From: Candidatus Iainarchaeum sp.
GTDB taxonomy: Archaea; Iainarchaeota; Iainarchaeia; JAGGVJ01
Direction of reading: 5' to 3'
Assembly: GCA_021158055.1 (NCBI GenBank)
Contig: JAGGVJ010000041.1
Coordinates: 1 to 49,545, forward strand
DNA length: 49,545 bases
Both the position numbers and the translations under genes were made by a program. Under the pieces are notes generated by a model. That model ran no database searches. It was not told where the DNA came from and saw only the letters and a program-made list of their open reading frames with translations. This document shows, one piece after another, positions 2,177-49,076 of this stretch; positions within the stretch are counted from its first letter, which is position 1, and each line of letters opens with the position of its first letter.

Positions 2177-2267
2177 TTTATCTAATAAAATTAAGTAAAT
2201 ATAATATAACTATATAAAAGAACATACTAAAGAAAGAGCAATACAATTAAATAAAAATTCATTAGCA

Positions 2268-2588
2268 ATGACTTTAAAAAAAATATTAGATGCTAGATAT
2301 TTAAATAACTTATCCCCAAAATCAAAAAAAGTCCTTTTAGAGATTACAAACCATCATGAGATAACAAATAAAACCCTTTCAAATAAACTTAAGACCCCTA
2401 GTTCAAATATTTCCACATACATTAAAAACTTAAATGAACAAGGTTGTGTCTATTTAAGAAGAAAAAACGGTAAAGATAAATTTTGGAGTGCAGACCCAAT
2501 AATGAAATGGAATTTATTAGAGGTAGATGAGGGATTATTAAAAGATGAGGGATATCAAGATACATTATTATATGATTTTAATAAATAA
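2268..2588 (+). CDS. Winged-helix (ArsR/MarR/TrmB-like) transcriptional regulator
   Basis: LS..SKKVL..I....IT...LS..L....SNIS.YIK.L.EQG.V....NGK pattern. Much more AT-rich than neighbouring genes. Confidence 0.75.
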   Translation: MTLKKILDARYLNNLSPKSKKVLLEITNHHEITNKTLSNKLKTPSSNISTYIKNLNEQGCVYLRRKNGKDKFWSADPIMKWNLLEVDEGLLKDEGYQDTLLYDFNK

Positions 2589-2676
2589 CGCATAATTAAA
2601 TATCCAGAAGACTTAACAGCCTACAATCCAATAAACTTTTTAAAGGTACATATAATTCAAAAAAAGGTGCAATCAA

Positions 2677-3246
2677 ATGAACAAAGACGAAATTGTTTTA
2701 TTACTGGCTGTTTTTTCAATTGTGTTCATTTTCGCGGCGATTTTTTTTAATTACTCGCAGCCTGTTTTTGAAGACATTCAAAACGGGGTGGTTTACCAGT
2801 CAACCCACGAAAACCCGGCGAAATACCTGAAAAGCCAGGTGATTTCCGCAGAAAAGGCAAGAATCGTGATTGAATTGAACAAGAACGGTGAGCAAAACCA
2901 GTCAATGACCCAAGGGCTTGTGTGGTTTTCGTACGTGTTCGGAGCGCTTGGCAAAGACCCTGCGATAACTGCCCTGGAGATGGAACAAGGCAAGATTGTC
3001 TCGTGCACAGGTGATTTTAACTCGTCCTGCGAAACGGCTCTTGATCCGGACGAAAACAGCTTTTTGCTTTATATCGTTCAGCCGGACTGCGAGCATGCAA
3101 TCGTGACAGTTGAAGAGAACAAGGCAACCGTGTGCGCTGACTCTTACATGAACGTAGAGCCGATGGCTTACTCTGTTTCAAAAATGCTGTTCCCGAACAT
3201 TGACCTGCTTTCAGAAAACATGGGAAAAATACTGGACAGGCTTTGA
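2677..3246 (+). CDS. Membrane-anchored hypothetical protein
   Basis: N-terminal hydrophobic helix, four Cys, GGTG Shine-Dalgarno upstream. Confidence 0.7.
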   Translation: MNKDEIVLLLAVFSIVFIFAAIFFNYSQPVFEDIQNGVVYQSTHENPAKYLKSQVISAEKARIVIELNKNGEQNQSMTQGLVWFSYVFGALGKDPAITALEMEQGKIVSCTGDFNSSCETALDPDENSFLLYIVQPDCEHAIVTVEENKATVCADSYMNVEPMAYSVSKMLFPNIDLLSENMGKILDRL

Positions 3247-3330
3247 AAGGCAATCTGCATAACAGCAAAGGCAATCCGTATAACCGCGAAAGCAACTTTT
3301 ATAACAGCAAAAGCAGTTTTTATAACTGGT
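3247..3330. repeat. Degenerate 21-bp tandem repeat x4
   Basis: aaggcaatctgcataacagca / aaggcaatccgtataaccgcg / aaagcaacttttataacagca / aaagcagtttttataactggt. Confidence 0.8.
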
Positions 3331-3347
3331 TGTGAACCGGTTTTGTC

Positions 3348-4355
3348 TTGAAAGGAAGTGAGTTTCTGAAAAAAGTATTTGTGTCTGTGGTTTTTTCTGT
3401 TCTGGCAGTTGCGGTGGTTATTTTTTCAGTCGTGAATCTCACCGGCTCCACACAGCATTTGCTTTCTGTTGACTTGTCTTACTTTGCGCTTTCTTCTTTT
3501 TGCATGCTGTTTTCAATAGCGTTGTGGGCCGTGTCCTGGAACCATGTCATGCGCGCGTTTGCAGGCACTCCGTACAAAAACGCGGTTGTGCTTTCTTTCT
3601 GCGCTTTTTACGGAAGCCTTACTCCCATGCAGATAGGCACGGATGCGGTGAGGTCGTTTTTGTCAAAAAAGTTTCTGCTGATACCTGCAAAAAAAGCGTT
3701 TTCAGCGTCTCTTATAACAAAAATGATGAAGTTTTTCCTGCTTGTGATTGCGGCAGGGTTTTCAATCGTCGTGCTTGAACTCAAATCCCCTGTTTTCGGG
3801 CAGTCATTTTTTACGCTGATAGTCGGCTTTTCGGTCATTCTTTTCGCGGCGCTTGTCTTTTACGGGCTTCAGTGGAACAGTTTTGGAAGGCGCGTTGCGC
3901 GCCTGCTGGACATTGCAACCCCGTTCCTTTCAAGGTTCGGGTTTTCTTTCAAGTCGCTCTTTTTGACTTACTCAACCATGTATTCGGAGATGGTTTTGAA
4001 CAGGAAAATCATTGCGTTTTTCCTTGTTTTTCTGTCGCTTTTGTTTGAATACCTGGCCGTTTACTTTGCTTTTTCGGCTCTTTTTATGGAAGTGAGTTTT
4101 TTTGACATTTTCCTGTTTGCGACAATCGTGAACATCTTGTCAAGGGTGCCGTGGCTTCCGCAGGGAATCCTTCTTGTTGAAGCCACAGGGTATGTGTTTT
4201 TGACTTCGCCTTCGTTTGCGGCGCTTGAACCCGTGCAGGTCGGCTCAGTGATAGTTCTCTGGGATATTGTGCGCCTTGCGGTACCGTTGCTTGTTTCGCT
4301 TGCGTTTAACGTGTTGTTGTTTGGCGAAAAGCTGGGTTTCCAAAAAGAAAAATAG
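3348..4355 (+). CDS. UPF0104 / LPG-synthase TM domain flippase-like membrane protein
   Basis: About 8 TM helices, LTP.QIGTDAVR and P.LPQG...VE motifs typical of the family. Adjacent to aglH. Confidence 0.75.
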   Translation: MKGSEFLKKVFVSVVFSVLAVAVVIFSVVNLTGSTQHLLSVDLSYFALSSFCMLFSIALWAVSWNHVMRAFAGTPYKNAVVLSFCAFYGSLTPMQIGTDAVRSFLSKKFLLIPAKKAFSASLITKMMKFFLLVIAAGFSIVVLELKSPVFGQSFFTLIVGFSVILFAALVFYGLQWNSFGRRVARLLDIATPFLSRFGFSFKSLFLTYSTMYSEMVLNRKIIAFFLVFLSLLFEYLAVYFAFSALFMEVSFFDIFLFATIVNILSRVPWLPQGILLVEATGYVFLTSPSFAALEPVQVGSVIVLWDIVRLAVPLLVSLAFNVLLFGEKLGFQKEK

Positions 4356-4356
4356 G

Positions 4357-5424
4357 CTAAATCAGCAGGTTAAGCAGGTTTACAAGAACCGCGTTTATTG
4401 CGACAATTGCCCATATCCTGTAAGTGAGCGTTTTTTCAGTTGCAGGTCCGAAAATTTTGATTATTACCTTGACAAAATTAAGCCGTTCTCCTGCACCCTG
4501 GTACTTTGGTATGGAAAGGACTCCCTTGGAACTTACGTCATATATGGGGTAGCGGCTCTCTGACATGTCTTCTTTGTTAGTAAGCATTTTCAGACCGAAA
4601 AAGTCTGCTATGTGGGGTAAAAATAACAGAAAACCGATTAATTCCTTGTTTGCAAATATCAAAATCCCTGCCATGGCGCTTCCGAAAAGGTATGTTCCGG
4701 CGTCTCCGGGAAAAACTTTGCTCGGGTAGCGGTTGAAGATAATCAGGGCAAGCATGCCTGCGGAAAATACTGCGGCAAGCGGAAAGTAGGCGGTCCCGTA
4801 GACAAGCCCCATTACCCCGAGGCTTGCAATGAAGCTTGAGCCGGTTTCCATGCCGTTTATTCCCGCGAAGGTGTTGGTGAAAGAGGCAAGGCCGGTGATA
4901 AAGAGTATTCCGAGCGCTGTGAAAAAAAGCTTTCCTCCAAACGCCTCAAAAAACAGCGGGCTTACAACGTAAAATGTTATGGGAGTGGCAAAAAGCCATG
5001 CAAAAACCCCTGAAACAAGCACCATCGGAACGGCTCTTGCAATCCACGGCACTTTTTTCAATGCAATGAATTTGTTTTGGGTGTCGTCTGCAAAACCGAT
5101 CAGCGAAAAGATTGTGATCAGGGTTGCCCAGAACAAGTATTCAAAATTAAATCTTAAAAAAACCTGCCCGCTTAAAACGCTGTTAAGCAACATAATTGGG
5201 TCTGTGCCGAAAACCTCGGTCGCACTCAACAAAAACACGCCGATCCAAAGCGGGATAAGCAAGGCAATGCCGCCGGTCTCGGCTATTTTGGGTTTTTCAG
5301 GCTTGTTTATGTCGATTCCGACGATTCCGATTGAATGCATTTTTTTTATGTATTGCTTTATCAGAACAAATGCAATAAAAAAAACTGTTGCGACAACCGC
5401 CAGATACACAGTCAGGTTATTCAT
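4357..5424 (-). CDS. aglH: UDP-GlcNAc:dolichyl-phosphate GlcNAc-1-P transferase (MraY/WecA/GPT family)
   Basis: G.DINKP...IAETGG, IGFADD, N..AGINGME and FNRYPSKVFPGDAGT motifs. Confidence 0.88.
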   Translation of the reverse strand: MNNLTVYLAVVATVFFIAFVLIKQYIKKMHSIGIVGIDINKPEKPKIAETGGIALLIPLWIGVFLLSATEVFGTDPIMLLNSVLSGQVFLRFNFEYLFWATLITIFSLIGFADDTQNKFIALKKVPWIARAVPMVLVSGVFAWLFATPITFYVVSPLFFEAFGGKLFFTALGILFITGLASFTNTFAGINGMETGSSFIASLGVMGLVYGTAYFPLAAVFSAGMLALIIFNRYPSKVFPGDAGTYLFGSAMAGILIFANKELIGFLLFLPHIADFFGLKMLTNKEDMSESRYPIYDVSSKGVLSIPKYQGAGERLNFVKVIIKIFGPATEKTLTYRIWAIVAINAVLVNLLNLLI

Positions 5425-6860: not shown

Positions 6861-8078
6861 TTAGAACCTGAGTATTGCGCCGAGCCCGCCAAAAGCCATC
6901 ATGAACTGTTTTCCGATGTCTGTTTCCGCAGAGATTATCTCCACATTTGAGCCGATCTGCTCGGCAAGCTCGCTTAACTCCTCGTACAGGTCTTTTGCTT
7001 CAACTATTTCAAAAGTTGCACCGCATTCGCATTTTGGAATGTTTTCCCTGAATGTTTTAAAGTCTTTGACTGTCAGCTCTTTTGATTTCTCGCAGGACCC
7101 GCAAAAAAGCTTTATTCTTTTCATTTTCACTGCCTCTGAAATAAGCAGGATTTCCACCCGTCCCTCCAGCACTGCTTCGCGCACTTCTTTTTCCCCGTAT
7201 GTTGAACGCTCTCCCCTTGCAATGTTTTCGAAAAACCTGTCCATGAGCTTTTTTTCCTGCACGATTTCTGTGTTTTCTATCAGTTCGCCTGACTTGTTTA
7301 CGACTTCGCGCACTCCTGATTCGTCTGTGTAGCTGGTTGACATGTCCCCGATTACTTTTTCTTTTACTCTGGCCTGCAGGTAATCCTCGTTTAAAAAGTG
7401 GTTTTTTGTGCTTCCGGGTCCTCCGAATATTATCCCGCGGAGGTTTTTTAGCTCTGAAAAAGATGAGTTTGCGATGTCTGCGATTCGCTTGTAAAACTCG
7501 TTTTCCGCAACTTCCCTTAACCGCTCAAACCTTTGGGCGCTTTGCCCTCCTGCCCTTGTCTTTCCAGGAACCTGGGACACCATGTTTTTGATTATTTCAA
7601 GTTTTTTCCCGCTTAAAAGCGCCACTGTGGCTTCGTGCTTGTCCATGACGACAATCCCGTAAACCTCGTCGCTTGCAGTCATTTCCTTTAAGGGGTCCAG
7701 GAAAAACATGGAGTCGCAGCGGTAAAGCTGTATGTTGATCTCTTTTGGCGGGACGACCGTCAATAGCTGTATCTTGTGCCCTCCTGCTTCTCTTGAAAAG
7801 CTCCCGCAGAAAATGGCGATGCCTTGTTTTGGAATCCGGTAATTCACTGTTTTCAGGTAGTGGATTATTTTTTCAAGCGCCCCCTGGACGTTTTTCTTTG
7901 TTGTTTTTGATTTTATGTTTGATGATTGTGACAGCTCGTCAGTGAGCTTTGAAGAAATGCTGCTTCTGTCATAATCGTAAGGGATGTAAAGAGAGATTAG
8001 CTCTGTTCCCTGTCCTTTTATGGATTCGAGTTCTTCAAGTTCTTTCTTGAAAGCATATGATTCTTTTGAGCTGGACAT
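6861..8078 (-). CDS. prf1: Peptide chain release factor aRF1
   Basis: GTELISLYIP, NIKS, YRCD and GGQSAQRF motifs, plus a C-terminal Zn-ribbon insertion. Confidence 0.97.
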   Translation of the reverse strand: MSSSKESYAFKKELEELESIKGQGTELISLYIPYDYDRSSISSKLTDELSQSSNIKSKTTKKNVQGALEKIIHYLKTVNYRIPKQGIAIFCGSFSREAGGHKIQLLTVVPPKEINIQLYRCDSMFFLDPLKEMTASDEVYGIVVMDKHEATVALLSGKKLEIIKNMVSQVPGKTRAGGQSAQRFERLREVAENEFYKRIADIANSSFSELKNLRGIIFGGPGSTKNHFLNEDYLQARVKEKVIGDMSTSYTDESGVREVVNKSGELIENTEIVQEKKLMDRFFENIARGERSTYGEKEVREAVLEGRVEILLISEAVKMKRIKLFCGSCEKSKELTVKDFKTFRENIPKCECGATFEIVEAKDLYEELSELAEQIGSNVEIISAETDIGKQFMMAFGGLGAILRF

Positions 8079-8397: not shown

Positions 8398-9507
8398 CTA
8401 ACATTTCTTGCAGTCCTTTAGCAGGCAACCCGGATCTTTCCCAAACAAATCACCGCCCTGCACCTGGGCCCGGACCCTGCAGCCGCCGCAACGCATTATG
8501 AACTTTTCACAATTGGCAGAGAAAGCGTTTTTCTCAAATCTTTTCCTTTTTATGGTCTTCAACAATTTGTTGTTCCTCACTATTTCGCTTAATGGCTGCT
8601 CGTTCAGATCCCCTACCACGTCGTCCCAGATATAACAGGGAATCACTTTGCCTTCATTTGTGATATGCACGCTTGTTATTCCGGCAACGCAATACGCCAG
8701 TTTATCTTTGGTGACCATATGTTTATCCAACACTCCCTTTATTGAGTCATCATCAATGATGTTGTCCCTGTTCACTATTTTCAGATTCTTGTGGTCTTTT
8801 GAAAAGTCATTCAGGGCTCTGATTGCAGAAATGTATTCTTCGTTCGAGACCGTGATTTTTTCGGCTTCCTTGTCAACCGGCGTCATTCTCCTGACAGAAA
8901 ATTCGTTAAGTTCAAACTGGGATAATACTTCTGCTACTTCCCTGACATGATCAATATTGCCTTTTGTCAAAGTCATTCTCACGCCAATCCTGAAACTTGC
9001 GTCTTCCATGATTTTTATTCCGTTCAAGGTCTTCTTGTAGCTTCCTTTAACACCGCGGATCTTGTCATGGATTTTCTCGGGCCCGTCCACACTTGTAAGG
9101 GTGTGAGTCAGCCCGGCTTTTTTAAGAGAATCAATCACTTTGCGGTCAACAAGGCAGCCGTTGGTAAACATTCGAAGATAAAAATCTTTTGAGAGAAGTC
9201 TGACGGCATCAAGCAGCCTGCCATACATCAGGGGTTCTCCTCCCGTCAGTGAAAAAACTCTTACATTGGGAAAATTTTTCTTGATATCATCTCTTAGCTT
9301 AACCAGTAAGTCATATGAGAAATCAGTGTTGCCTTCGCGAACCGCCCCGCAGTGGCTGCAGTTCAGGTTACACTTGTCTGTGAGTTCAAGGAAAATTGTG
9401 TTTATCAATGCTGCCGGATCAACATCCAATAACCCAAGCGGGTTGGTATCAAACGATTCAAAAAAATCATTTTCTGCTCCCCTAAAATTTGCTTCATCGT
9501 AATCCAT
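8398..9507 (-). CDS. Radical SAM protein with SPASM domain (PqqE/NirJ/AhbC-like)
   Basis: CNLNCSHC, TGGEP, TNG and SVDG..H motifs. SPASM cysteines CVAG...G.VIPC...C....CGGCR...DPGC. Confidence 0.92.
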   Translation of the reverse strand: MDYDEANFRGAENDFFESFDTNPLGLLDVDPAALINTIFLELTDKCNLNCSHCGAVREGNTDFSYDLLVKLRDDIKKNFPNVRVFSLTGGEPLMYGRLLDAVRLLSKDFYLRMFTNGCLVDRKVIDSLKKAGLTHTLTSVDGPEKIHDKIRGVKGSYKKTLNGIKIMEDASFRIGVRMTLTKGNIDHVREVAEVLSQFELNEFSVRRMTPVDKEAEKITVSNEEYISAIRALNDFSKDHKNLKIVNRDNIIDDDSIKGVLDKHMVTKDKLAYCVAGITSVHITNEGKVIPCYIWDDVVGDLNEQPLSEIVRNNKLLKTIKRKRFEKNAFSANCEKFIMRCGGCRVRAQVQGGDLFGKDPGCLLKDCKKC

Positions 9508-9562
9508 TTTCTTACACTCCGTTCTTACACTTTATTTTCTCTCACTTCTTTTTTTATCTTCC

Positions 9563-9631
9563 TCATGCATTCCAAAACCAGACAGCTGAGGCAACAAACT
9601 TCTTGTCAAATGACTGCCAGGCATCAAACAT
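9563..9631 (-). CDS. Candidate 22-aa peptide MFDAWQSFDKKFVASAVWFWNA (possible radical SAM substrate)
   Basis: ATG-to-TGA micro-ORF co-oriented in the 237-bp gap immediately upstream of the SPASM gene. No strong Shine-Dalgarno. Confidence 0.2.
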   Translation of the reverse strand: MFDAWQSFDKKFVASAVWFWNA

Positions 9632-9744
9632 ATGATGCTGTTATTCCAGCCAACCAACAATCAAAAGTAACCAAGCAAATATAATAATCTATCCGCGCTT
9701 CATTTCAAATCTGCCGTGACTTACCGCGTCTGAAGTTTCAAATC

Positions 9745-11526
9745 CTATTCCGGAACACCAGATTTGCCTATGTTTTTGTTTGAATAACCGTCATCCAAAG
9801 TGATGTCTTCAAATTCTTTGATATCCATCTTTGAAAACAGTTCTTCTTCAACATCAACTTCTTTAAGGGCATCCGGCAACAATACGTTAAGCACAAACAA
9901 ATCTTTTCCTTTCCTCTTGTAAACGACGAGCTTGATGCTTATTTCCTGGTGTCTGCATCTCAGCGTCTGATGATACACTTTCTTATGCACTGTCCTGTTT
10001 GAATGCGCGCTCAAGGTGCGAAATTCCTTGTCTGAAAGAGCAAATCTGATTCCTCTCATGCAAAGCCGGGCTTTGTATCTGAGCAAAAGATAATACTCAG
10101 AATAATCATCAACCGTACTTATCTTCTGTACTCTTGCATATGAAACATCCTTGAGGTTTACACTTTTACAATTGTCTTTCACAAAAGACTTCAAAGTCGG
10201 CTCGTCCAGCGGAACATACATGTCAAGGGACTTGTACTCTTTCAGGAAACCCGTGGGGATTTTATTTATTAGTATCCTGTACTTTTTCACAGTCAAGCCC
10301 TTCAATCTTTTTATCTTGAATATTCCTGCAGACCTGTGCAACCTCAAATTTTCAACGCTACTGATTTTTATCTTGATTGCCTTGGATTCTATTTCATTTA
10401 CCAGTTTTATGTTTGCAAAATCCTCTTCTGCAGTGCACAAGAAAGACGGTTCGTCAGTTAGTGAATCGCGCACGAGCCTGTTTTGTATCCTGCTCGAATC
10501 ATGCGGCATGGAATCAAAAAAGCTCTGGAGCCTTTCTCCTTCAGGAAACTTTTTTGTTTTCCTGTAAGAAAACAAAGAAAATTTATCCTTGTCAGTGGCA
10601 CTTGACTGGCCCACAAGAAGAGTTTCTTCCTCCAGATTGAACTTCAACGAGCACATGGGACTGTTGGTTGCTGTGTCATACATGGAAATCTGAAGGTATC
10701 TTTCGCGGGGGGTTTTGTAAACATTGCTTCTTATCTGGAAATAAGTGCCGTTGCCTGCCAGCAGGTTGATATCCGTGGCAAAGGGAATAAATTTCTGCAA
10801 ACCTGATTTTTTCTGGATTTTTTGGTCAACAAACATGCTTGTGAATATAATTGGGACTCCCACAAGTTTCACTTTGTGCCCGCGTGACGAAAAATTCACA
10901 AGGTCAATGAAATGCGTAACGCAATCGTGTAGCACGCCGATAGATGGCCTGTTTGAGATTGCCCTCATTTTGTTGAACTCAAGCAGAATCGGCGGCATAT
11001 AGCTTAAGTTTTCAATTTTTTCTGTTTCAATGATGTTTTTCAGCCCCAGAAAATGACGGAACGCCAGCGAAAACCTGAACTGATACGCCACTCTTATGTC
11101 AAGATGGTGTTCTTGCTGGAGTTTTATTATTTCCTTTATGTCAGCTATGTTATCCGACAGGGGCTTTTCAACCAGAATGCGCCAGGGCTTATCCTTTTTC
11201 ACAAGTTCTGCAATGATATTCTTGTGGGTTGTGATTGGCGTGACTATTATCACTAAACTGTCTTTTAACCCCTCAAGACAGCAAACATCCTGCAACGCTT
11301 CAATCCCTTTGCCTGAACCGGCAGACAATGTGCAGGCAAGTTCTTCAGCACTGTTCTTGTTTATATCAACAATTCTTGAAATGCTGATGGCATTTTCTTT
11401 CTGCAGATCAAGTAAAGTGCTGACATAACCTTCAGCAATTCGCCTTCCCGCTCCGATTATTACAATATCTCTTTTTTTCATAAAATTCTTCTCCTTTTTC
11501 ACAGCATCTTCTTTGGTGTCCCACAA
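9745..11526 (-). CDS. Gfo/Idh/MocA oxidoreductase fused to a degenerate CYTH-like domain
   Basis: IIGAG, TP...H, VEKP, YQFRF and D...H..D motifs. C-terminal ~185 aa ends EDITLDDGYSNKNIG, resembling the CYTH EVT.D..Y.N..L motif. Confidence 0.8.
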   Translation of the reverse strand: MWDTKEDAVKKEKNFMKKRDIVIIGAGRRIAEGYVSTLLDLQKENAISISRIVDINKNSAEELACTLSAGSGKGIEALQDVCCLEGLKDSLVIIVTPITTHKNIIAELVKKDKPWRILVEKPLSDNIADIKEIIKLQQEHHLDIRVAYQFRFSLAFRHFLGLKNIIETEKIENLSYMPPILLEFNKMRAISNRPSIGVLHDCVTHFIDLVNFSSRGHKVKLVGVPIIFTSMFVDQKIQKKSGLQKFIPFATDINLLAGNGTYFQIRSNVYKTPRERYLQISMYDTATNSPMCSLKFNLEEETLLVGQSSATDKDKFSLFSYRKTKKFPEGERLQSFFDSMPHDSSRIQNRLVRDSLTDEPSFLCTAEEDFANIKLVNEIESKAIKIKISSVENLRLHRSAGIFKIKRLKGLTVKKYRILINKIPTGFLKEYKSLDMYVPLDEPTLKSFVKDNCKSVNLKDVSYARVQKISTVDDYSEYYLLLRYKARLCMRGIRFALSDKEFRTLSAHSNRTVHKKVYHQTLRCRHQEISIKLVVYKRKGKDLFVLNVLLPDALKEVDVEEELFSKMDIKEFEDITLDDGYSNKNIGKSGVPE

Positions 11527-11527
11527 C

Positions 11528-14227
11528 TCACTTCAACGAACTCATCAAATCTTTCAGAAACTTTTTTGTCTTCAAAATGTTTCCGGAAACTTTTAGGAAA
11601 AGATTTTCCCCGTCAGATAACATGTTTGCATCCTCATAGCTTGTGCCTGAATCTATCAAAAAATCCCTGATTTTCAGGTATTCTTCTTTGTTTATCAGAA
11701 TAAGCATGTATTTGTCATCAAATTTTGTTCTCAATTTGCCTCCGCAAAGAGAAGATAAAAATTCTGCCAAAGGGCGTCTTTTTTTATTCAGCGCCTTGCA
11801 CGCACCAGAAGAGCCCAGAGTTATCACATAAGAAAAACCATTCTTTCCGCAGTAACAAATCCTATTACCATTCATAGTCAAACCGCTCACAACATCAACA
11901 CTCAGAATCTCGGCGGGAATTATTCCCGGACTTGAATCTTCACCCTCATAAATGTATATTCCTTCAAAAGGTTTCGACACTGCAATAATTCCACACCTGT
12001 CATTTTCAGCACTGCTGCCAACACCACTGTTTTTTCCAATGCCATTACCTTTCCCGACACCGTCGTATCCGGCAATAAGGACGTGTTCTATTCTCTTTGA
12101 CTCACTGCCTTCAAGTATTCTCACAAACTCGCCTGAGCAAGAAAACACTTTAACCGCTCCGATGTCTTCACCGTCGGCAACATAAATCCGGTTCCTGCCT
12201 GTATAAATGTGGTTCGGGTGCTTTATGTGTGGATTTTCTATTTTTTTTAAGGAAACACTCGGATCTGAAGAATCCAAATCAAACACAAGTATTCCCGGCT
12301 TGTTTTTCAATCGCTTCATTGAATCTTCAAGAAAACTCATTGGCCCGGGCAGATAAAACGATACATATACTTTATTATTTTTCAGGCAGATATCAGCAAT
12401 TCCCCCAAAGAAATGCTGGTCTGAACCAAACCGTATTCTGGTAGCTGGTTCCAACTGGCGTGGCGGCACATGCATGACTATTTTGCCTTTCATGTCAAAA
12501 ACATATATTTCTCTTTCATGCGGGGTGCCTTTGCCCTCAACAAGCAATGCAATCCTTGAAGTATCACAACACGAACCCCTGATTCTTTTGCGCCCGTTGC
12601 GAAAAATTTCTTTCCCTATTTTTTCGACTGATTTCCCTGATTTTTCAGTCACGCAGATAAAATCGCATCCTGTAACCAGAACATTTCCCGAATTATTTGA
12701 ATCCAACTCGCGCATTTTGAGAACAGGGCTGCAGCATTCAAAAGAACTGCTGCAATCGACTATTTTTACAAGATACTTTCCAAACGCCCCGGAATCCCAC
12801 AGTTCCACAGGGGTCTGATTGTTATTTTTTCCCAATAAGCGGATGCGGCTAAAAGCATTTGCAAGCATGCGCCTTGCAGATAGGATTTGGTTTGATGACA
12901 GCCACTTTGTTTCGCTTACCGGGAAAATTTTTTCAGATTTTGAACGCTCGACGTTTTTGTAATGGGAAAAATCTTTGTCAATGATTTTAATGCCGAACTT
13001 CTCAGGGTTTTTGGAAAAAACAGACCCGGGAAACGGCATGAATATTTCACTGGACACATTGTCTGGTTGGGTTTCCTTGAAGAAAGTGATAGTTGTCTTG
13101 ATGCTTTCCATGTCCTGCTGTGGCAATCCGACCATGGCATAAAATTCAGCTGTTATCCCCGAATCTTTGATGAATCTGCATGCTCTTGCATTTTGCTCCA
13201 AAGTAATGTTCTTGTTGGTTGCATCAAGCACTTTCTGGTCGCCGCTTTCAAGACCGATAGATATTTTCCTTGCGCCGGCCAGATACATGAGTTCAGGCAA
13301 CTCTTGCTTCACTGAATCAGCTCTTGTCATGCATCTCCATTTGACAGGCAGCTTTCTTTTGATAATATCCCTGCAAAATCTTTCAACTCTTTTGGGGTCT
13401 GTCATAAAACAATCATCGTAAAACTCAAAGTTAAACACCCCCCACTTCTCCATTATCATTTCAATGTCATTAAGCACTTTTTCCACGCGGCGATAACGTA
13501 TGTTTCTTGATGGATTGATGCTGTGGTAACTGCAGAAAAAACATCTGTTTGGGCAGCCAAAAGAACTCACGAGTTGAAAAGACGGCTCGCCGTTGAAGTT
13601 ATCTGAACAAAAATCATAGTTGGATAAGTTAATATCTTCCAGGGGCAACGGCGGCAGTGCATTGGGATCAGGCAGGTCCGCATACCCTGTAAAACAGGGG
13701 GTTCCGCTGGAATCCTTGTACCAGATTCCCTTAATATTGGTGATGCCGTTAATGCCGCTGACTTCGTTGATTCCGCTGATTGACAGCTTGTCTTTTGTAT
13801 TTCCTGTCACGGATTTAATTTTTATTAATGACATAAGTTTTATTATTGTATCCTGCCCCTCGCCGTGGACAACAAGATCAGCGTACTTTACGGTTTCCTT
13901 TGGCAGCAGTGAAGAATGAACGCCGCCCGCTACAGTGATAATGCCCGGGTTTATTTTCTTTATCCTCATCAATAACTCATACATAACGTCCGAAAGATAG
14001 GACTCGTTTATGGAAAAAACGATGACTGGAGGGTTTTTTTCTTCAATGTAGCTTTCCAGATTAAAATCTGTATCTGTAGCCAGATTCACAAAATCAATAT
14101 TTGTTTTTGCTTTAAAATGTTCCTTCAAAGAAGAATATATATACAGGGCTCCCAGCGCGGGCTTTGAATTCAGGAACCTGTCCGGGGAAGACATATTAAT
14201 AACAAGAATATTTTCTTTCTCCTGCAT
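11528..14227 (-). CDS. Cobalamin-binding radical SAM enzyme (class B methylase-like) with a C-terminal NHL/beta-propeller region
   Basis: PALG..YI, GGVH and GEGQ B12-domain motifs; GCPNRCFFC; FYDDCF; GLESG; GLP. C-terminal P.HI....IYVAD....VKVF...GEFV repeat. Confidence 0.88.
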   Translation of the reverse strand: MQEKENILVINMSSPDRFLNSKPALGALYIYSSLKEHFKAKTNIDFVNLATDTDFNLESYIEEKNPPVIVFSINESYLSDVMYELLMRIKKINPGIITVAGGVHSSLLPKETVKYADLVVHGEGQDTIIKLMSLIKIKSVTGNTKDKLSISGINEVSGINGITNIKGIWYKDSSGTPCFTGYADLPDPNALPPLPLEDINLSNYDFCSDNFNGEPSFQLVSSFGCPNRCFFCSYHSINPSRNIRYRRVEKVLNDIEMIMEKWGVFNFEFYDDCFMTDPKRVERFCRDIIKRKLPVKWRCMTRADSVKQELPELMYLAGARKISIGLESGDQKVLDATNKNITLEQNARACRFIKDSGITAEFYAMVGLPQQDMESIKTTITFFKETQPDNVSSEIFMPFPGSVFSKNPEKFGIKIIDKDFSHYKNVERSKSEKIFPVSETKWLSSNQILSARRMLANAFSRIRLLGKNNNQTPVELWDSGAFGKYLVKIVDCSSSFECCSPVLKMRELDSNNSGNVLVTGCDFICVTEKSGKSVEKIGKEIFRNGRKRIRGSCCDTSRIALLVEGKGTPHEREIYVFDMKGKIVMHVPPRQLEPATRIRFGSDQHFFGGIADICLKNNKVYVSFYLPGPMSFLEDSMKRLKNKPGILVFDLDSSDPSVSLKKIENPHIKHPNHIYTGRNRIYVADGEDIGAVKVFSCSGEFVRILEGSESKRIEHVLIAGYDGVGKGNGIGKNSGVGSSAENDRCGIIAVSKPFEGIYIYEGEDSSPGIIPAEILSVDVVSGLTMNGNRICYCGKNGFSYVITLGSSGACKALNKKRRPLAEFLSSLCGGKLRTKFDDKYMLILINKEEYLKIRDFLIDSGTSYEDANMLSDGENLFLKVSGNILKTKKFLKDLMSSLK

Positions 14228-14296: not shown

Positions 14297-14341
14297 GTGA
14301 ACTACCCCACCCTTACGGATGGGGACTTACGGAAAGGTTAA
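14297..14341 (+). repeat. Palindromic element, copy 1 (IS200/IS605-end-like hairpin) upstream of pyrH
   Basis: gtgaactaCCCCAcCCttacGGaTGGGGacttacggaaaggttaa. Homologous copy at 40377-40422 on the minus strand. Confidence 0.7.
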
Positions 14342-14415
14342 GTAATAAAATTGATTTAATTATTTACATAAATTATCTTATCACAATAAATGAATTTTTT
14401 ACGGGAAGTGGTTTT

Positions 14416-15099
14416 TTGAAAAATATTGTCATTTCAATGGGTGGTTCGGTTCTTTTTAACGAAAACTTTGAGCCTGAAAGGATTAAAAAGTTTGCGTCGA
14501 TGATTGCGGGTTTAAAAAAAGATGGTTTTGAAGTCGGTGTTGTTGTCGGCGGAGGAAAGATGTGCGGTAAATACGTTGACGCCGCCAGAGGCCTTGGAGC
14601 GAACGAGTTTTTCTGCGATGATCTGGGAATGAAGGTTACAAGGGTTAACGCGTTTCTTTTCATTCAGGCTTTGGGTGATATTGCGTCTCCTCAAGTGGTC
14701 ACTGATTATTTTGAAGCAAAAAAGATTATGGGTTCAGGAAAAGTGACTGTCATGGGCGGAATGCTCCCGTCAATTACAACTGACGCGGTTGCGGCTCTTT
14801 TGGCTGAGTTTGTTGAAAGTGATCTTGTGAACGTGACCAATGTCAGGGGCGTTTACTCTGATGACCCGACAAAAAACAGTGATGCAGAGTTTCACAAGCA
14901 AATGTCTTTTGAAGAAATGGTCTTGCTTTCGTCCGAAAAAGATTCAAGGCGCGCCAGGTCAAACTTTGTTTTTGATGCGATAGCCTCCAAGATAATCGCG
15001 AGAAGCAAAGTAAGAACAAGCATCGTGGGTTCGGATTCAGTTGAAAACATCCTGAAGGCCGTTAAAAGAAAAGGGTTTGACGGCACTTTAATCGGATGA
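14416..15099 (+). CDS. pyrH: UMP kinase
   Basis: IVISMGGS, VVVGGG, TTDAVAA and TNVRGVY..DP motifs. Start moved to TTG at 14416 to match family length. Confidence 0.95.
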   Translation: MKNIVISMGGSVLFNENFEPERIKKFASMIAGLKKDGFEVGVVVGGGKMCGKYVDAARGLGANEFFCDDLGMKVTRVNAFLFIQALGDIASPQVVTDYFEAKKIMGSGKVTVMGGMLPSITTDAVAALLAEFVESDLVNVTNVRGVYSDDPTKNSDAEFHKQMSFEEMVLLSSEKDSRRARSNFVFDAIASKIIARSKVRTSIVGSDSVENILKAVKRKGFDGTLIG

Positions 15100-38199: not shown

Positions 38200-38285
38200 G
38201 TTTTTGCTTGTTTTTATTGTTTGCCGTCTTTGATGCATTGATTGTTTTAAATCCTTTAGCAGTTAATTGTTTTAATGGATTTTTT

Positions 38286-38380
38286 GGGCCCGTAGATCAG
38301 CTGGAAGATCGCGTCCTTGGCGTGGATTCGCTTTTGCCGAAGCGCTGACGAGGCCTGGGGTTCAAGTCCCCACGGGTCCA
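38286..38380 (+). tRNA. tRNA-Ala(GGC) with a 22-nt intron (38326-38347) at position 40/41
   Basis: Exons are near-identical to the operon tRNA-Ala(UGC) outside the anticodon arm. Anticodon 38319-38321; complete hBHBh motif. Confidence 0.92.
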
Positions 38381-38495
38381 TTTTCAGATCTTTTGAGCCT
38401 GCGTTTTTTATTCGGGATATATTTTTATAGTTTTTTCGGCACATATTTAGATGGACACACATTAAAAATTTCCGCACTTGTTTTTGTTGCTTTTT

Positions 38496-44041: not shown

Positions 44042-45533
<1,492 letters not shown>

Positions 45534-45659
45534 TCAGTAAATGAAGCAACCATGTGCCTTCGGGCACTGGTTGTGTGAAGTGTGTTTATAACCACTTCCT
45601 TTTTTTCTGTTTGCGGGGGCCTTAATGCATGGATTTGAATGAAATTTAATAGGGTTTTC

Positions 45660-45735
45660 GGGCCCGTAGATCAGCTGGAAGATCGCATGCTTTGCAAGCA
45701 TGAGGCCTGGGGTTCAAATCCCCACGGGTCCACCA
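45660..45735 (+). tRNA. tRNA-Ala(UGC) in the 16S-23S spacer, CCA encoded
   Basis: Cloverleaf; anticodon TGC at 45693-45695; G3-U70 pair. Confidence 0.97.
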
Positions 45736-45987
45736 GCTTTTTAGAAAGGCTCGCATAACCTAAAGTATCCGGAAAACAAAGAACAATTTTGTTTTTCGGG
45801 CCCTGAAAACAGGAAGTTGTTTTCGGGAATTCACGCTCACGCGGATTAATCCGCTTGAAACTCACATGCAAAAGAATGTTTCATTTTTTTGCTTTGAACA
45901 ACATGCACCCGGTGTGTAATTATATCGGGGAAGGGTGAGACTGCAACCGTTTACGTTTAACGGCGGTTGTTGGTTCATGAAGCCGTG

Positions 45988-46011
45988 TATAGGAGGTTAA
46001 ACGGCCTAAGG
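45988..46011 (+). other. 5' strand of the pre-23S BHB processing stem (partner at 48968-48991)
   Basis: TATAGGA-GGTT-aaa-CGGCCTAAGG pairs with CCTTAGGCCG-GACC-ttt-TCCTATA. Confidence 0.85.
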
Positions 46012-48967
46012 TAAGATGCTACGCCTTTTGGTGGATAGTTTGGCTTAGGGACTGACGACGAGCGCGGCAAGCTGCGATAAGCTTGGGCGAGTAGCAAGCA
46101 TATTTTGAACCCAAGATTCTCTAATTGGTTGATAGACCGGGAACGCAGTGAATTGAAATATCTTAGTAGCTGCAGGAAAAGAAAGCAATTGCGATGCCGT
46201 TATTAATGACGAACGAACGCGGCACAGGGCAAACCGAACCTTTCACGGCAACGTGTTTGGAATGTGGTTTTTGGCCTGTTTTACAACCCGATTTTGAAGT
46301 TGAGGTCTCCTGGAACGGAGCACCGTAGAGGGTGATAGTCCCGTAAACGACAGATTGAGGGTTGATTTTACAGTGTCCAGAGTATTGTGCGTTGGATATC
46401 GCGCAAGAATCCGGGGCCACCAAGCCCCAACCCTAAATATTTCCTAAGTCCGATAGTGAATTAGTACCGCGAGGGAAAACTGAAAAGCATCCCTGACGGG
46501 AGGTTAAAAGAGTTTGAAACCAAGAGGCTACAGGTGGATACGGCATGAAAGGGGCTTTTTTGAACGAATATGAAGCGATTTGTTATTAGGAGAAAAAGTT
46601 TTTCAGTGTTGTATCGTCCTTCCGGAAGCAAGGGCCGGGGAGTTAGTTGTGGTGGTGAGGTTAACCCGTTTCGCGGGGAAGCCAAGGGAAACCAAGTATC
46701 CCGCAGCTCACTTATGTGAGTCAGGGGATGGGTCTTAAAGGGCCTAAATCACTGCAGCCATACCTGAAACTATGTGAACTAATCCTGGGCAGGTTGAAGG
46801 CGTTCTACAGAGTGCTGGAGGACCGTACCGTTTCTAGTCAAACTGTTCGGGTGACCTGGGATTAGGGGTGAAAGTCCATTCGAACATAGTAATAGCAGGC
46901 TCCTCCCGAAACATCCCTCAGGATGGCCTGGCTGGAGAATGATGGCGAGGTAGAGATACTGACTGGAAAGTTAAGGATCGAAAGGTTCGGCTTTCCTGTC
47001 AAACTCCGAATTTGCTGTCTTCGCAGAAGGCTGGAGTTGGCGTGCACGGGTAACCGTGTATGCGTGAAGTGAAGAAACTAGACTTGGGTTAAGGTCCCAA
47101 AGTACCGGCTAAGTGTTAATGTAAATGGCGTCATAGGTCGAAGACAATTGGAAGGTTGGCTTAGAAGCAGCCACCCTATATTGAGTTCGTAACAGATCAC
47201 CAGTCGAGATTTATGGCACAGAAAATGGACGGGGCTAAGTCGGTCACCGATACCCAAGAGCTTTGATTGTATCAAAGATTTTGTAGGGAGGCGTTGCGCG
47301 TGGGCAGAAGTCAGGGCGTAAGCTCTGGTGGACCGCGTGGAAATGAGAATCCCGGTGAAAGTAGCAGCTTACCTGAGTTAAAATCTCAGGCGCCGAAAGG
47401 GCTCGGGTTCCTCGGATCTGATCATCAGCCGAGGGTTAGCCGATCCTAAGTTTGTCCTTAACTGAGGCAGACGAAAGGGAAACAGGTTTATATTCCTGTG
47501 CCTTGCAAATACGTGCGGTAACGCTAGTTTGCTCTCTGACGCTTTCGGGTAGTTCAAGCACCGTTATCGCGGTGTCTACCAATGATAACTCTGTGGAGAA
47601 TTGTAATAATGAGAAGCAGAGTAAAATTGCAATGGGTTGTGTATGCAGCTTTGGATGAGCCCAAGAGCCCGTGAAAAGGGGAGCGGAATGGATTTTGCAA
47701 GTTCGTACCTAGAACCAGGACTGGTGCCCCTAGCTGAATAGGCTAAGGCGTGTTGAGACAACTCGATTAAGGGAATTCGGAAAAATGGCTTCGTATCCTT
47801 GGTATAAGGAGTGCCTGAAGATGAATAATCTTCAGGTCGCAGAGACCGGGGGGGTCCGACTGTTTATTAAAAACACAGGTCACAGCAAACCCGAAAGGGC
47901 TCGCACTGTGGCTGACTCCTGCTCACTGCTAGTACGTGAAACTTTCTTTCAAGGGAGCTAAGCGCTAGTGAAGAGCGGACCTAACTCTGAGGTTCTTAAG
48001 GTAGCGTAATACCTCGTCAATTAATTGTTGACTTGCATGAATGGAGTAACGAGATCCCCACTGTCCCTAGTCGAGACTCAGTGAAATCACTACACGGTGG
48101 TGATGCCGTGGACTCCCACTGGGGTGAGAAGACCCCGTGGAGCTTTACAACAGTCTGAGGTTGCTGTTCGTTTTGGGATGTAGAGTGTAGGTAGTAGGCT
48201 TCGAAGCATAGTCGCTAGGTTATGTGGAGCCGGCAATGTAACACTACCCATCCTCGAGCGAATCGCTTACCCGAAAGGGGACAGGTTCAGATAGGTTGTT
48301 GGACTGGGGCGGTACGCGCCTGAAAAAATATCAGGCGCGCCCAAAGGTTTGCTCAGGAAGGTCAGAAATCTTCCGTCGAGTGCTAAAAGCAAAAGCAAGC
48401 CTGAAAGGATTTTTCAAAGAGCGAAATTCTGGCGCGAAAGCGTGGTTTAGCGATCCTCTGTGCCTCTTTGGTGGAGGCCAGGTCTGACAGAGAAGTTACC
48501 CCGGGGGTAACGAAGTGGTAGCGGGTGAGAGCCCATATCGACCCCGCTGTTTGCTGTCCCGCCGTCGACTCTTGCCATCCTGGCTGTGCATAAGCAGCCA
48601 AGGGTGGGGTTGTTCACCCATTAAAGGCGAACGTGAGTTGGGTTTAGTACGTCGCGAGACAGTATGGTTACTACCTAGTGGGAGTGTGAGGTGTCTGAGG
48701 GGAAGCACCCTCGAGTACGAGAGGAACGAGGGCTCGCAGCCTCTGGTCTATCAGTTGTCCGACAGGGCATGCTGAGCAGCTACGCTGTACGTGGATAAGA
48801 GCTGAAGGCATCTAAGCTCGAAGCCACCCCCAAAAAGAGACACCCATACTGCTGTCTTTGATAGTAGTGAAGAGTACTCATAGAACATGAGGTTGATAGG
48901 CCAGGCGTGTAAGTGCCAAGCTTCGGCGAGGTATTCAGCGCGCTGGTACTAATAATTCAGGATTCTG
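46012..48967 (+). rRNA. rrl: 23S rRNA (ends approximate)
   Basis: AGTACCGCGAGGGAAA, GAAGACCCCGTGGAGCTT, P-loop CTGGGGCGG and sarcin-ricin loop AGTACGAGAGGAAC. Confidence 0.98.
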
Positions 48968-49076
48968 CCTTAGGCCGGACCTTTTCCTATACGTGGTTTT
49001 CATAAAAACCATTTCTTTAAATATTAGTTTCATTACTAATTTTTCACTGGGAATTGGTTTAAATTAAAAAATCAGA

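Follow-up and report, generated by a model that had tools for sequence, protein, structure and literature searches.

A block of three same-strand genes has been inserted into the conserved divergent spacer between aRF1 and pyrH in the genome of Candidatus Iainarchaeum sp., and we put at about one in two the probability that it is a lineage-specific glycan-sugar tailoring module of three soluble enzymes. The likeliest substrate is a sugar from a cell-surface glycan of the S-layer/N-glycan type, either nucleotide-activated or lipid-linked. Coordinates are those of the window, the whole 49,545-nucleotide stretch of contig JAGGVJ010000041.1 that was analysed. The organism is a tiny vent archaeon, and its genome (1.15 Mb) is 94.9% complete.

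An insertion between aRF1 and pyrH

The features of the region are as follows:

6861-8078 (-), aRF1 (prf1), left insertion boundary
8398-9507 (-), gene 3, 369 aa ORF, radical-SAM/SPASM
9745-11481 (-), gene 2 from its ATG (open to a TTG at 11526), 578 aa, or 593 aa from the TTG, Gfo/Idh/MocA
9748-10326 (-), gene 2 C-terminal extension, residues 401-593 (~195 aa), orphan, basic (about 20% K+R)
11528-14227 (-), gene 1, 899 aa ORF, B12-binding/radical-SAM
11531-12820 (-), gene 1 C-terminal extension, residues 470-899 (430 aa), orphan
13082-13567 (-), gene 1 radical-SAM core, residues 221-382 (Pfam)
13844-14158 (-), gene 1 B12-binding-type domain, an N-terminal Rossmann domain, residues 24-128 (Pfam)
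14297-14355 (+), IS200/IS605-type (IscB/HEARO-like) RNA or element-end fragment of about 50 nt, in the gene 1/pyrH divergent spacer
14437-15099 (+), pyrH-like AA_kinase gene (amino-acid-kinase family), right insertion boundary

The three co-oriented ORFs lie between aRF1 and pyrH just as an earlier, sequence-only reading of the window had described them, and TruD and Dph2 genes are also among the flanking genes. The flanks are AT-rich, as had been noted, with a GC of 0.28 in both spacers, although this is ordinary for intergenic DNA. Genes 3 and 2 are separated by 237 nt. Gene 2 had been described as starting 1 nt after the gene 1 stop, which holds for the TTG only; the ATG at 11481 is preceded by a GGAG motif ~9 nt upstream and public gene calls for gene 2 are of 578 aa, and the gap between genes 1 and 2 is thus 46 nt, with gene 2 probably starting at this ATG and coding for 578 rather than 593 aa. 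Inspection by eye also revealed motifs resembling GGAG or AAGGA upstream of genes 3 and 1. The block genes are intact and >99.5% identical in 2–3 assemblies, and their proteins recur in other assemblies with 1–4 substitutions. None of the three products contains TM-like segments (all three scanned), and the proteins are soluble. No glycosyltransferase, aminotransferase or nucleotidyltransferase gene is present inside the block. Within the window, an S_layer_C protein (a weak match, 30.6 bits), an LPG_synthase_TM 'flippase-like' protein and a GT4 protein are encoded 3–8 kb from the block, consistent with the S-layer and flippase-like neighbours mentioned previously; TruD and aRF1 stand between the block and the GT4 and flippase-like genes.

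Both genes are present in 32 relatives of the same class, and in 28 of these aRF1 and pyrH form a divergent, adjacent pair 61–404 bp apart; one of the other four has a 1.5-kb gap, and in three the genes are on different contigs. Here they are 6.36 kb apart, and the block is therefore a real insertion, as the earlier reading had proposed. The proposal that it was probably laterally acquired fares less well. Codon usage in the three genes is close to average for the genome (at the 9th, 13th and 19th percentiles of distance from its mean, noting that long genes score low through length alone), and the GC content is likewise typical of the genome. No repeats pairing the two edges of the block were found, and the gene 1 radical-SAM core has its nearest relatives within the same archaeal class. 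With native composition and no bracketing repeats, recent lateral transfer is not supported; the block may be either old enough to have acquired native composition, or built from genes of its own lineage.

Domain composition of the three proteins

The predicted B12-binding radical-SAM identity of gene 1 is borne out by Pfam matches to B12-binding (44 bits, cut-off 32.1) and Radical_SAM (70 bits), the former being the only B12-binding-type domain found in the genome (1 match), and all three cysteines of the CxxxCxxC motif (C225/C229/C232) are invariant in alignment A2. AF2 confidence is moderate to good across residues 1–465. For this part of the protein the nearest solved structure is AprD4, both by sequence (E = 1.7e-16) and by predicted fold (Foldseek top match 6fd2, E = 1.4e-21, TM 0.71, fold-level identity about 18%), a ranking that is weak as evidence because PDB coverage of class-B radical-SAM enzymes is sparse. 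Gene 1 is not a member of the AprD4 family (76.1 bits, cut-off 500), and its top three curated NCBIfam profiles, PhpK (118.6 bits, cut-off 600), HpnJ (116.8, cut-off 577.6) and BchE (116.1, cut-off 481), are matched at about one fifth of each cut-off, which is no evidence of membership.

Database matches to the whole gene 1 protein reach only its first ~500 residues. The long C-terminal extension, absent from AprD4, has strands predicted within residues 523–845 and seven cysteines at 492–554, and its last ~90 residues are predicted to be mostly helical with two short strands; AF2 pLDDT is mostly <50 across residues 467–812. A search of 214 further genomes of the phylum found nothing similar beyond two chance-level matches (16–18 bits). 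The sequence-only reading had assigned a beta-propeller to this region. A propeller is possible, but the leads to it are weak: a Pfam DUF5128 match on residues 667–703 (E = 0.1, 12.2 bits) and an Atlas feature score of 0.84, under the lead level of 0.9. NHL and DUF5128 HMMs gave no match in the genome at E <= 10.

Gene 2 codes for a Gfo/Idh/MocA dehydrogenase as proposed (Pfam GFO_IDH_MocA N-terminal domain, 47.7 bits), with a complete predicted fold at residues ~16–400 in the TTG numbering (AF2). Conserved residues include G25/G27, E120-K121-P122 and H205 (alignment A1), and the catalytic EKP and D-x3-H motifs are intact. The top Foldseek matches are sugar or cyclitol dehydrogenases, with GenD2 ranked first and also including GnnA, DgpA, KanD2 and inositol dehydrogenases, although they are effectively tied (1e-17 to 1e-15), GenD2 with ~30 other Gfo/Idh/MocA structures. 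The CYTH-like character proposed for the C-terminal extension did not hold up. A CYTH HMM searched against the six-frame genome matches only C13:27965-28402 and not gene 2, and hhalign against 12 archaeal CYTH proteins gave probabilities <1%. The extension (AF2 pLDDT 30–58) has no usable match in the ESM Atlas, and in an exhaustive phmmer search all non-self matches to gene 2 fall within residues 5–327.

Gene 3 is a radical-SAM/SPASM protein, in agreement with the earlier assignment (Pfam Radical_SAM 79.7 bits, SPASM 33.7 bits), with core cysteines C46/C50/C53 and eight cysteines in the SPASM domain at residues 273–369. Its best NCBIfam scores are to NirJ (135.2 bits, cut-off 515), AhbD (131.4) and AhbC (116.3), and some of its matches at ~30% identity are named in their sources as 12,18-didecarboxysiroheme deacetylase, as might be expected if the block tailored a tetrapyrrole or cofactor in the manner of Ahb or NirJ. 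We regard this as highly improbable: the gene 3 scores reach roughly a quarter of the 500–650 cut-offs, the rest of the block bears no resemblance to tetrapyrrole enzymes, and the BchE score of gene 1 does not exceed those for the unrelated PhpK and HpnJ models.

By sequence, the best solved relatives of gene 3 are SkfB (E = 1.4e-17) and PqqE, both peptide maturases, and in NCBIfam it matches many RiPP maturase families (70–96 bits), while gene 1 matches ApyD and RiPP C-methyltransferase families (54–70 bits). The genome is also rich in radical-SAM proteins, with 24 matches in its 1.15 Mb that include a six-member cluster. Peptide or protein modification, in which gene 3 would cross-link or epimerise, gene 1 C-methylate and the gene 1 extension bind the protein, is nonetheless unlikely. 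No ORF in the block or next to it is a plausible precursor, those present being of low complexity and 22–61 aa long; gene 3 lacks an RRE-sized N-terminal domain, the approximately 35 residues before its radical-SAM core being too few for an RRE; and the gene 1 core has its nearest relatives in glycan clusters. To our knowledge, Gfo/Idh/MocA dehydrogenases have no usual role in RiPP pathways, which also counts against it.

Chemistry on lipid head groups or cyclitols, such as HpnJ- or calditol-like ring contraction or other change to a head group made of inositol or a hexose, or action on scavenged archaeal lipids, seems similarly doubtful. HpnJ is among the leading gene 1 profiles, the top NCBIfam match of gene 2 is inositol 2-dehydrogenase (46.3 bits), an LPG_synthase_TM gene is nearby, and gene 3 has a weak match (31.8 bits) to 7tol, the GDGT/macrocyclic archaeol synthase. 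But the 7tol match is limited to the generic radical-SAM core (residues 40–145), the family scores are far under their cut-offs, including that of gene 1 to a ladderane-lipid B12-binding radical-SAM model (93.5 bits, cut-off 360), the three proteins have no TM-like segments, and the LPG_synthase_TM genes of relatives are found among glycosyltransferases rather than lipid-synthesis genes.

Relatives in glycosylation clusters and proposed chemistry

Searches found no orthologues of the three proteins, whether among 5.8 billion proteins indexed by word or among 1.84 billion representatives read exhaustively; they are orphans at the family level, and their earlier description as uncharacterised stands. 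With curated family scores so far under the cut-offs, the substrate class is not readable from family membership. The orphan status of all three, the long spacer between genes 3 and 2 and the low-confidence models of both extensions are also what fast-evolving or decaying lineage-specific genes might display, with three unrelated enzymes being chance neighbours in no coherent pathway. This has a very small probability in our estimation: the frames are long and intact, the cluster-binding cysteines and dehydrogenase motifs are all kept, codon usage is near the genome mean (though length alone lowers the distance of long genes), the proteins recur nearly unchanged in other assemblies, and gene 2 is preceded by a GGAG ribosome-binding motif, with similar motifs read by eye ahead of the other two genes.

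A glycan-sugar tailoring module gains comparative support, as does the glycan option raised in the sequence-only reading, from the three best relatives found anywhere for the gene 1 radical-SAM core (163, 156 and 145 bits; 28–32% identity). All three are within glycosylation clusters of the same class, a context drawn from 3–4 loci and two relative families (f7 and f14) at about 30% identity:

G026:C37, Gfo/Idh/MocA, DegT aminotransferase, hexapeptide acyltransferase, B12-binding radical-SAM, methyltransferase, GT1/GT4
G035:C6, GT2, methyltransferase, B12-binding radical-SAM, 11-TM protein, LPG_synthase_TM, GT1/GT4, methyltransferase, B12-binding radical-SAM, GT2
G008:C1, two B12-binding radical-SAMs, a radical-SAM 28% identical to gene 3, DegT aminotransferase, two GT2

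These enzymes share the B12-binding and radical-SAM architecture of gene 1, but at 459–540 aa they lack its C-terminal extension, and they lie among glycosyltransferases and polytopic membrane proteins, whereas the block stands alone between housekeeping genes. The relatives display looser versions of its pairings, with a B12-binding radical-SAM accompanied by Gfo/Idh/MocA or by a SPASM-type radical-SAM. In a quick maximum likelihood tree, which is unrooted with long branches and no support of 95 or more, the gene 1 core groups with the G026:C37 enzyme (SH-aLRT 90), and the pair nests in a group holding both G035 enzymes (SH-aLRT 86).

In the proposed module, gene 2 would convert a secondary alcohol of the sugar ring to a ketone, or the reverse, in an NAD(P)-dependent manner, and gene 1, to which it may be tightly coupled (46-nt spacer with a ribosome-binding motif), would act at a neighbouring carbon through a 5'-deoxyadenosyl radical. 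With cobalamin bound, gene 1 could add a methyl group, following the logic of GenD1 and GenK; without it, a vicinal hydroxyl could be eliminated, as in AprD4, with gene 2 serving as ketoreductase partner like AprD3. Gene 3, which has two auxiliary-cluster sites in addition to its radical-SAM core, might perform a further oxidation, epimerisation or decarboxylation, and the orphan C-terminal extensions of genes 1 and 2 may be substrate- or partner-recognition modules. The pairing of a B12-dependent methylase with a dehydrogenase had been taken to indicate C-methylation, which is one option only, because AprD4, the nearest solved structure, is a diol dehydratase and not a methylase. If the block does tailor sugars, C-methylation leads at a little under even odds, AprD4-type deoxygenation is a less likely outcome, and other radical chemistry is somewhat less likely again. 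FecCD/BtuC, PduO-type adenosyltransferase and CobS were not found in this 94.9%-complete genome, but FecCD exceeds its cut-off in none of the 41 class genomes searched, and the missing transporter therefore leaves cobalamin use undecided.

Three known systems are informative. AprD4 is the radical-SAM 1,2-diol dehydratase of apramycin C3'-deoxygenation. It deoxygenates a sugar together with an NADPH reductase partner, AprD3 (PMC5461906), and thus, as in the block, such a radical-SAM enzyme is paired with a nicotinamide-dependent oxidoreductase on a sugar; the block differs in having a third, SPASM-type enzyme. The conversion of gentamicin A2 to X2 (PMC4340712) also combines a Gfo/Idh/MocA-fold dehydrogenase and a cobalamin-type radical-SAM in one sugar pathway, with the sugar oxidised, transaminated, N-methylated and then C-methylated by GenD2, GenS2, GenN and GenD1. 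The oxidation by GenD2 is at the sugar 3'' position, and gene 1 is likened to GenD1 by enzyme type. The G026:C37 cluster includes the same four enzyme types, whereas the block has neither the aminotransferase nor the N-methyltransferase; the genome has a single weak DegT-like match (29.9 bits). Lastly, PMC9204698 presents HpnJ as a non-methylating class-B enzyme with a proposed role in contracting a lipid-attached sugar ring, and HpnJ and BchE together illustrate that not every class-B enzyme is a methylase.

A hairpin of an IS200/IS605-type family

An 8-bp G+C-rich hairpin is located at about 14304–14323, 77–96 nt upstream of the gene 1 ATG. The genome yielded no Y1 transposase, and no matching second element end is present at the other edge of the block. 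The hairpin is not specific to the block, as its family has eight dispersed copies in the genome. The window copy aligns to HEARO at positions 1–52 only (12.4 bits, E = 1.6), and in contrast to IscB/TnpB elements the window contains just these approximately 50 nt and no nuclease gene. It is ~80% identical over 49 nt to a copy next to an RRXRR+HNH (IscB-like) gene, where the repeat makes up the 5' stem-loop of a complete HEARO RNA (117.9 bits), and another copy is at the 3' end of an OrfB_IS605/TNB gene; the hairpin thus shares its sequence family with that HEARO stem-loop of the same genome and belongs to an IS200/IS605-type family, as its earlier description as resembling an IS200/IS605 end had implied.

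An insertion into the aRF1/pyrH spacer

The island comprises three minus-strand genes (8398–14227) flanked by aRF1 (prf1) and TruD on one side and by a pyrH-type kinase and Dph2 on the other. Within the window, 3–8 kb from it, are a GT4 gene, one for an LPG_synthase_TM protein and one that is S-layer-like.

8398–9507, minus strand: gene 3, ORF of 369 aa, radical-SAM/SPASM
open from a TTG at 11526, minus strand: gene 2, Gfo/Idh/MocA, 593 aa in this numbering
11528–14227, minus strand: gene 1, ORF of 899 aa, B12-binding/radical-SAM

The aRF1 and pyrH genes were looked up in 40 relatives, all related to the source genome (G000; 1.15 Mb, completeness 94.9%) at class level only, within a phylum of 215 species genomes, the listed ones being roughly 0.6–1.5 Mb. 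Both genes are present in 32 of the relatives (on the same contig in 29 and on different contigs in three), and in 28 of these 32 they are divergent neighbours, with matches 61–404 bp apart. The distance in the window is 6.36 kb, and the island is therefore an insertion into a conserved spacer, as the sequence-only reading had supposed in placing it between two housekeeping genes. The exception is relative G025, in which a 1.5-kb gap between pyrH and aRF1 (G025:C2:6053–7555) is occupied by a different gene, so that this spacer has taken up genes at least twice. By eye, the P-loop and general look of its product resemble those of the AAA_14/DUF4143 ATPase on contig C25. In three further relatives aRF1 gives a two-piece match within a single open frame of 852–928 aa, a pattern expected of an intein or other large in-frame insertion.

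G025 locus L045, 796–2154, minus strand: inserted ORF, 452 aa, P-loop ATPase-like
G022:C11:38045–40747: split aRF1 frame
G024:C2:440015–442714: split aRF1 frame
G012:C1:16331–18838: split aRF1 frame

Elsewhere the window carries, at 44042–49311, a complete rRNA operon (16S, tRNA-Ala and 23S) with an RNase P RNA of archaeal type roughly 100 nt past the 23S gene, and, at 38285–38381, a 97-nt tRNA-Ala(GGC) that probably contains an intron.

Little in the composition of the island sets it apart. Codon usage of the three genes is near the average of the source genome, with distances at the 9th, 13th and 19th percentiles of its 627 long ORFs, long genes scoring low partly through their length, and their GC contents at the 22nd–47th percentiles; both flanking spacers have a GC of 0.28, which is ordinary for intergenic DNA. 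No direct or inverted repeats pair the two edges, no integrase or transposase gene lies within the island, and the sole trace of a mobile element is an IS-type hairpin fragment of about 50 nt that has seven further copies elsewhere in the genome. The gene 1 core has its nearest relatives within the class of the source genome. Of the marks of a recent transfer, then, a synteny break is present, and deviant composition, flanking repeats and mobility genes are absent; the view that the island was probably acquired laterally is not borne out.

The hairpin, upstream of gene 1, belongs to a family of eight copies in the source genome, with at most five mismatches in 29 nt and conserved flanks. The stem, read on the minus strand, includes a conserved G-U wobble position; the loops vary between copies, and one copy has a compensatory change in the stem.

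about 14304–14323: hairpin upstream of gene 1, 8-bp G+C-rich stem, four-nt loop
C13:16630–16658: hairpin copy 1
C14 (the window) 14300–14328: hairpin copy 2
C15:13148–13176: hairpin copy 3
C20:28228–28256: hairpin copy 4
C25:4212–4240: hairpin copy 5
C28:26932–26960: hairpin copy 6
C33:7237–7265: hairpin copy 7
C45:28569–28597: hairpin copy 8

The C15 copy makes up the 5' stem-loop of a full-length HEARO RNA (117.9 bits against a gathering score of 83), and this RNA and the beginning of an RRXRR+HNH (IscB-like) gene overlap; HEARO is the guide RNA of IscB. The C28 copy lies in the opposite orientation at the 3' end of an OrfB_IS605/TNB (TnpB-like) gene, the location of the TnpB RNA, and shares a further 110 nt or so with the C33 copy. 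Most of the others are solo spacer fragments, the distance to a gene start being 26–110 nt. A search for a Y1 transposase in the source genome was negative. The description of the hairpin as IS200/IS605-end-like was thus right in kind, the motif occurring within a HEARO match beside an IscB-like gene and also at a TnpB-like gene. The window copy matches HEARO positions 1–52 only (12.4 bits, E = 1.6), with about 80% identity to the full HEARO copy over 49 nt and no likeness beyond; it is a short dispersed remnant in the spacer, and it neither brackets nor explains the island.

Three proteins and two orphan extensions

Gene 1 has a class-B radical-SAM architecture, with an N-terminal B12-binding-type Rossmann domain (residues 24–128; PF02310, 44 bits, cut-off 32.1) followed by a radical-SAM core (residues 221–382; PF04055, 70 bits) whose CxxxCxxC motif (C225/C229/C232) is invariant in the gene 1 alignment. 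The nearest solved structure to the core is AprD4, a 1,2-diol dehydratase of sugars, both by sequence (E = 1.7e-16) and by predicted fold (E = 1.4e-21), followed in the fold search by the methylases MgmA, TsrM, TokK and CysS, and by OxsB. The curated profiles do not discriminate, with PhpK (TIGR04479, 118.6 bits, cut-off 600), HpnJ (TIGR03471, 116.8 bits, cut-off 577.6) and BchE (TIGR02026, 116.1 bits, cut-off 481) all scoring 116–119 bits and far under their cut-offs; the AprD4 family NF033070 scores 76.1 bits against a curated cut-off of 500.

The core is followed by an extension of 430 residues (470–899) with no family match. A search of 5.8 billion proteins, with 8000 candidates scored, gave nine matches to gene 1 at E <= 0.001; one is its own cluster, and the other matches span 19–50% of the query, all inside the first 500 residues or so. 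B12-binding/radical-SAM matches occur in 28 of the 40 relatives (29 of 41 genomes with the source), none extending beyond residue 454; in JGI metagenome contigs the sole relative is a distant enzyme of this type with 24% identity. The extension gave only two chance-level matches (16–18 bits) in the 214 other genomes of the phylum, and no homologue of it was found among seven large proteins encoded beside the relatives' enzymes, six of which have 6–13 TM-like segments and one none. It had been taken for a beta-propeller, a designation that rests on weak leads: DUF5128 at E = 0.1 over a single stretch, and Atlas features at 0.84 for lactonase/NHL/SGL clusters. Propeller profiles (NHL, DUF5128) gave no match at E <= 10, self-BLAST of gene 1 found no internal repeat, and the AF2 model of the extension is of low confidence, with strands broken up by helices. 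The 63 residues that come soon after the radical-SAM domain (492–554; window 12568–12754) contain seven cysteines, two CC pairs among them, which could form an extra metal or cluster site, in a region modelled at low confidence.

Gene 2 had been described as starting 1 nt after the gene 1 stop. A GGAG motif lies about 9 nt upstream of an ATG at 11481, and public gene calls give 578 aa; the spacer between genes 1 and 2 is therefore 46 nt. The first 400 residues or so form a complete Gfo/Idh/MocA dehydrogenase (PF01408, 47.7 bits), with GxGxxG, EKP with the catalytic Lys, D-x3-H and the C-terminal alpha/beta domain; G25, G27, E120-K121-P122 and H205 (of D-x3-H) are conserved relative to 59 distant homologues in an alignment of 60 sequences. 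The AF2 model covers the two-domain fold to about residue 400, and Foldseek matches (TM 0.63–0.81 against the targets) are headed by GenD2, then GnnA, DgpA, inositol dehydrogenases and KanD2, all with similar E-values. That the island serves lipid head-group or cyclitol chemistry we regard as unlikely.

When 1.84 billion representatives were searched exhaustively with phmmer, gene 2 had one match below 1e-10, which is itself; the remaining 92 are weak Gfo/Idh/MocA matches of at most 44 bits, all within residues 5–327. For the last 195 residues or so no match was found and the AF2 model is of low confidence. This ending had been called CYTH-like, and to the eye its residues have some likeness to a CYTH-type ending; hmmscan of residues 390–593 returned nothing at E <= 10. 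The CYTH assignment (PF01928) was also rejected with the profile run on the six-frame genome (matching another locus only), with hhalign (probability below 1%) and in the Atlas (no match). The two fused domains have no homologue in about 2–6 billion public proteins, and the uniqueness of the island partly reflects a lack of same-order genomes. The only other Gfo/Idh/MocA-like gene in the source genome (C20:28317–29648, 443 aa, weak at 21.6–24.3 bits) starts 61 nt from a hairpin copy.

Gene 3, separated from gene 2 by 237 nt, contains a radical-SAM core (PF04055, 79.7 bits) and a SPASM domain (PF13186, 33.7 bits, cut-off 21.5), with eight cysteines in residues 273–369. Its best non-self match has 31% identity (133 bits), and its structural neighbours, all weak matches, are SkfB, PqqE, GDGT synthase and the sugar decarboxylase BlsE. 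Peptide modification, a reading for which the likeness to SkfB and PqqE might be cited, is improbable: only about 35 residues precede the core, there is no PqqD match, and the island spacers hold no convincing small ORF for a precursor, although one may be encoded farther away. Tetrapyrrole tailoring is very improbable; the AhbD, AhbC and NirJ profiles, from the alternative haem and haem d1 pathways, score 131.4, 116.3 and 135.2 bits for gene 3, below their cut-offs of 500–650 bits. Rfam at the gathering threshold gave nothing within the island, and scans for sigma-70 promoters and intrinsic terminators, models unsuited to archaea, gave no excess over shuffles.

Variants of all three proteins with 1–4 substitutions are present in other assemblies, one on a contig of 48 kb, so genes 1–3 are real and stable within the species. 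Two DNA runs, both from the same hydrothermal-vent metagenome study, contain the window sequence; one of them may be its source, and there are no RNA runs among the matches listed. The organism is a very small vent archaeon that probably depends on a host.

Cobalamin and the glycan clusters of relatives

Gene 1 carries the sole B12-binding domain in the source genome, and searches there for FecCD/BtuC, a PduO-type adenosyltransferase and CobS were negative. FecCD over the cut-off is absent from all 41 class genomes searched, yet 29 of them have B12-binding/radical-SAM-like genes, and its absence is therefore uninformative on whether gene 1 uses cobalamin; we know of no reliable sequence motif for cobalamin binding or use. 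Class-B enzymes need not be methylases (PMC9204698), and AprD4 is a dehydratase acting with a reductase partner (PMC5461906).

The most informative result on function comes from the relatives, in which the three best homologues of the gene 1 core (163, 156 and 145 bits) all lie in glycosylation clusters. The G026:C37 cluster encodes a Gfo/Idh/MocA dehydrogenase, a DegT aminotransferase, a hexapeptide acyltransferase, a PIN protein, the B12-binding/radical-SAM enzyme, a methyltransferase and GT1/GT4; the four enzyme types of the GenD2/GenS2/GenN/GenD1 steps of gentamicin (PMC4340712) all recur in it. In G035:C6 the order is GT2, a protein of no assigned type, methyltransferase, B12-binding/radical-SAM, an 11-TM protein, LPG_synthase_TM, GT1/GT4, methyltransferase, a second B12-binding/radical-SAM and GT2. 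Two weaker homologues (93–99 bits) in G008:C1 accompany a radical-SAM protein that shares 28% identity with gene 3, a DegT aminotransferase, a methyltransferase and two GT2 genes, and in G039:C17 a SPASM radical-SAM gene and a B12-binding/radical-SAM gene lie around one for an 8-TM protein homologous to that of G035. In a quick, unrooted maximum-likelihood tree with long branches and all support values under 95, the G026:C37 enzyme is the neighbour of the gene 1 core (SH-aLRT 90), and the two fall in a group that also contains both G035 enzymes (SH-aLRT 86).

The best-supported explanation, to which we give a probability of about one half, is that the island is a soluble, lineage-specific module tailoring a glycan sugar. 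In this reading the products of genes 1 and 2 would form a radical/redox couple, gene 3 would supply a further radical enzyme, and the orphan extensions would serve to recognise substrate or partner. If the chemistry is C-methylation, the question is how the cofactor is supplied without recognisable genes for cobalamin uptake or salvage. A less likely variant is an AprD4/AprD3-like pair that works without cobalamin, deoxygenating or ring-rearranging a cell-surface sugar, fused to two hitherto unseen recognition domains and accompanied by the SPASM enzyme. AprD4-like chemistry would extend a reaction known from one antibiotic pathway only to archaeal glycans, which would thereby gain deoxy or rearranged sugars by a route without described counterpart.

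Literature searches found nothing combining radical SAM, Gfo/Idh/MocA and cobalamin, and nothing relevant on radical-SAM C-methylation of archaeal glycan sugars; to our knowledge, there is next to no work on the radical-SAM enzymes that very small archaea encode in glycan clusters. As a combination these enzymes are familiar; new are their fusions, their orphan domains and where they are placed. That the three genes form no coherent pathway at all strikes us as very improbable. Very small archaea depend on cell-surface contact with their hosts, and under the glycan-tailoring reading unusual surface sugars may matter for host attachment. The enzymes are soluble and therefore expressible, a compact set of a class-B radical-SAM enzyme, a likely redox partner and a SPASM enzyme. 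The island is a clean, testable target, yet one among very many uncharacterised radical-SAM loci, and a lineage-specific variant, not a new kind of system.

Other radical-SAM genes of the source genome

There are 24 Radical_SAM matches in the 1.15-Mb source genome, unusually many for its size. Six of the genes, one with SPASM, are clustered in C28:46000–55000 (L013) with a gene for a DUF7121 protein and a type IV prepilin-peptidase-like (A24) gene. Contig C5 (L014), which is short and has a GC of 0.365 against about 0.42 for the genome, carries three successive radical-SAM ORFs (77–2080, 2231–3244 and 3208–5382), of which two are very long at 667 aa and 725 aa or more, and may be a mobile or strain-variable segment.
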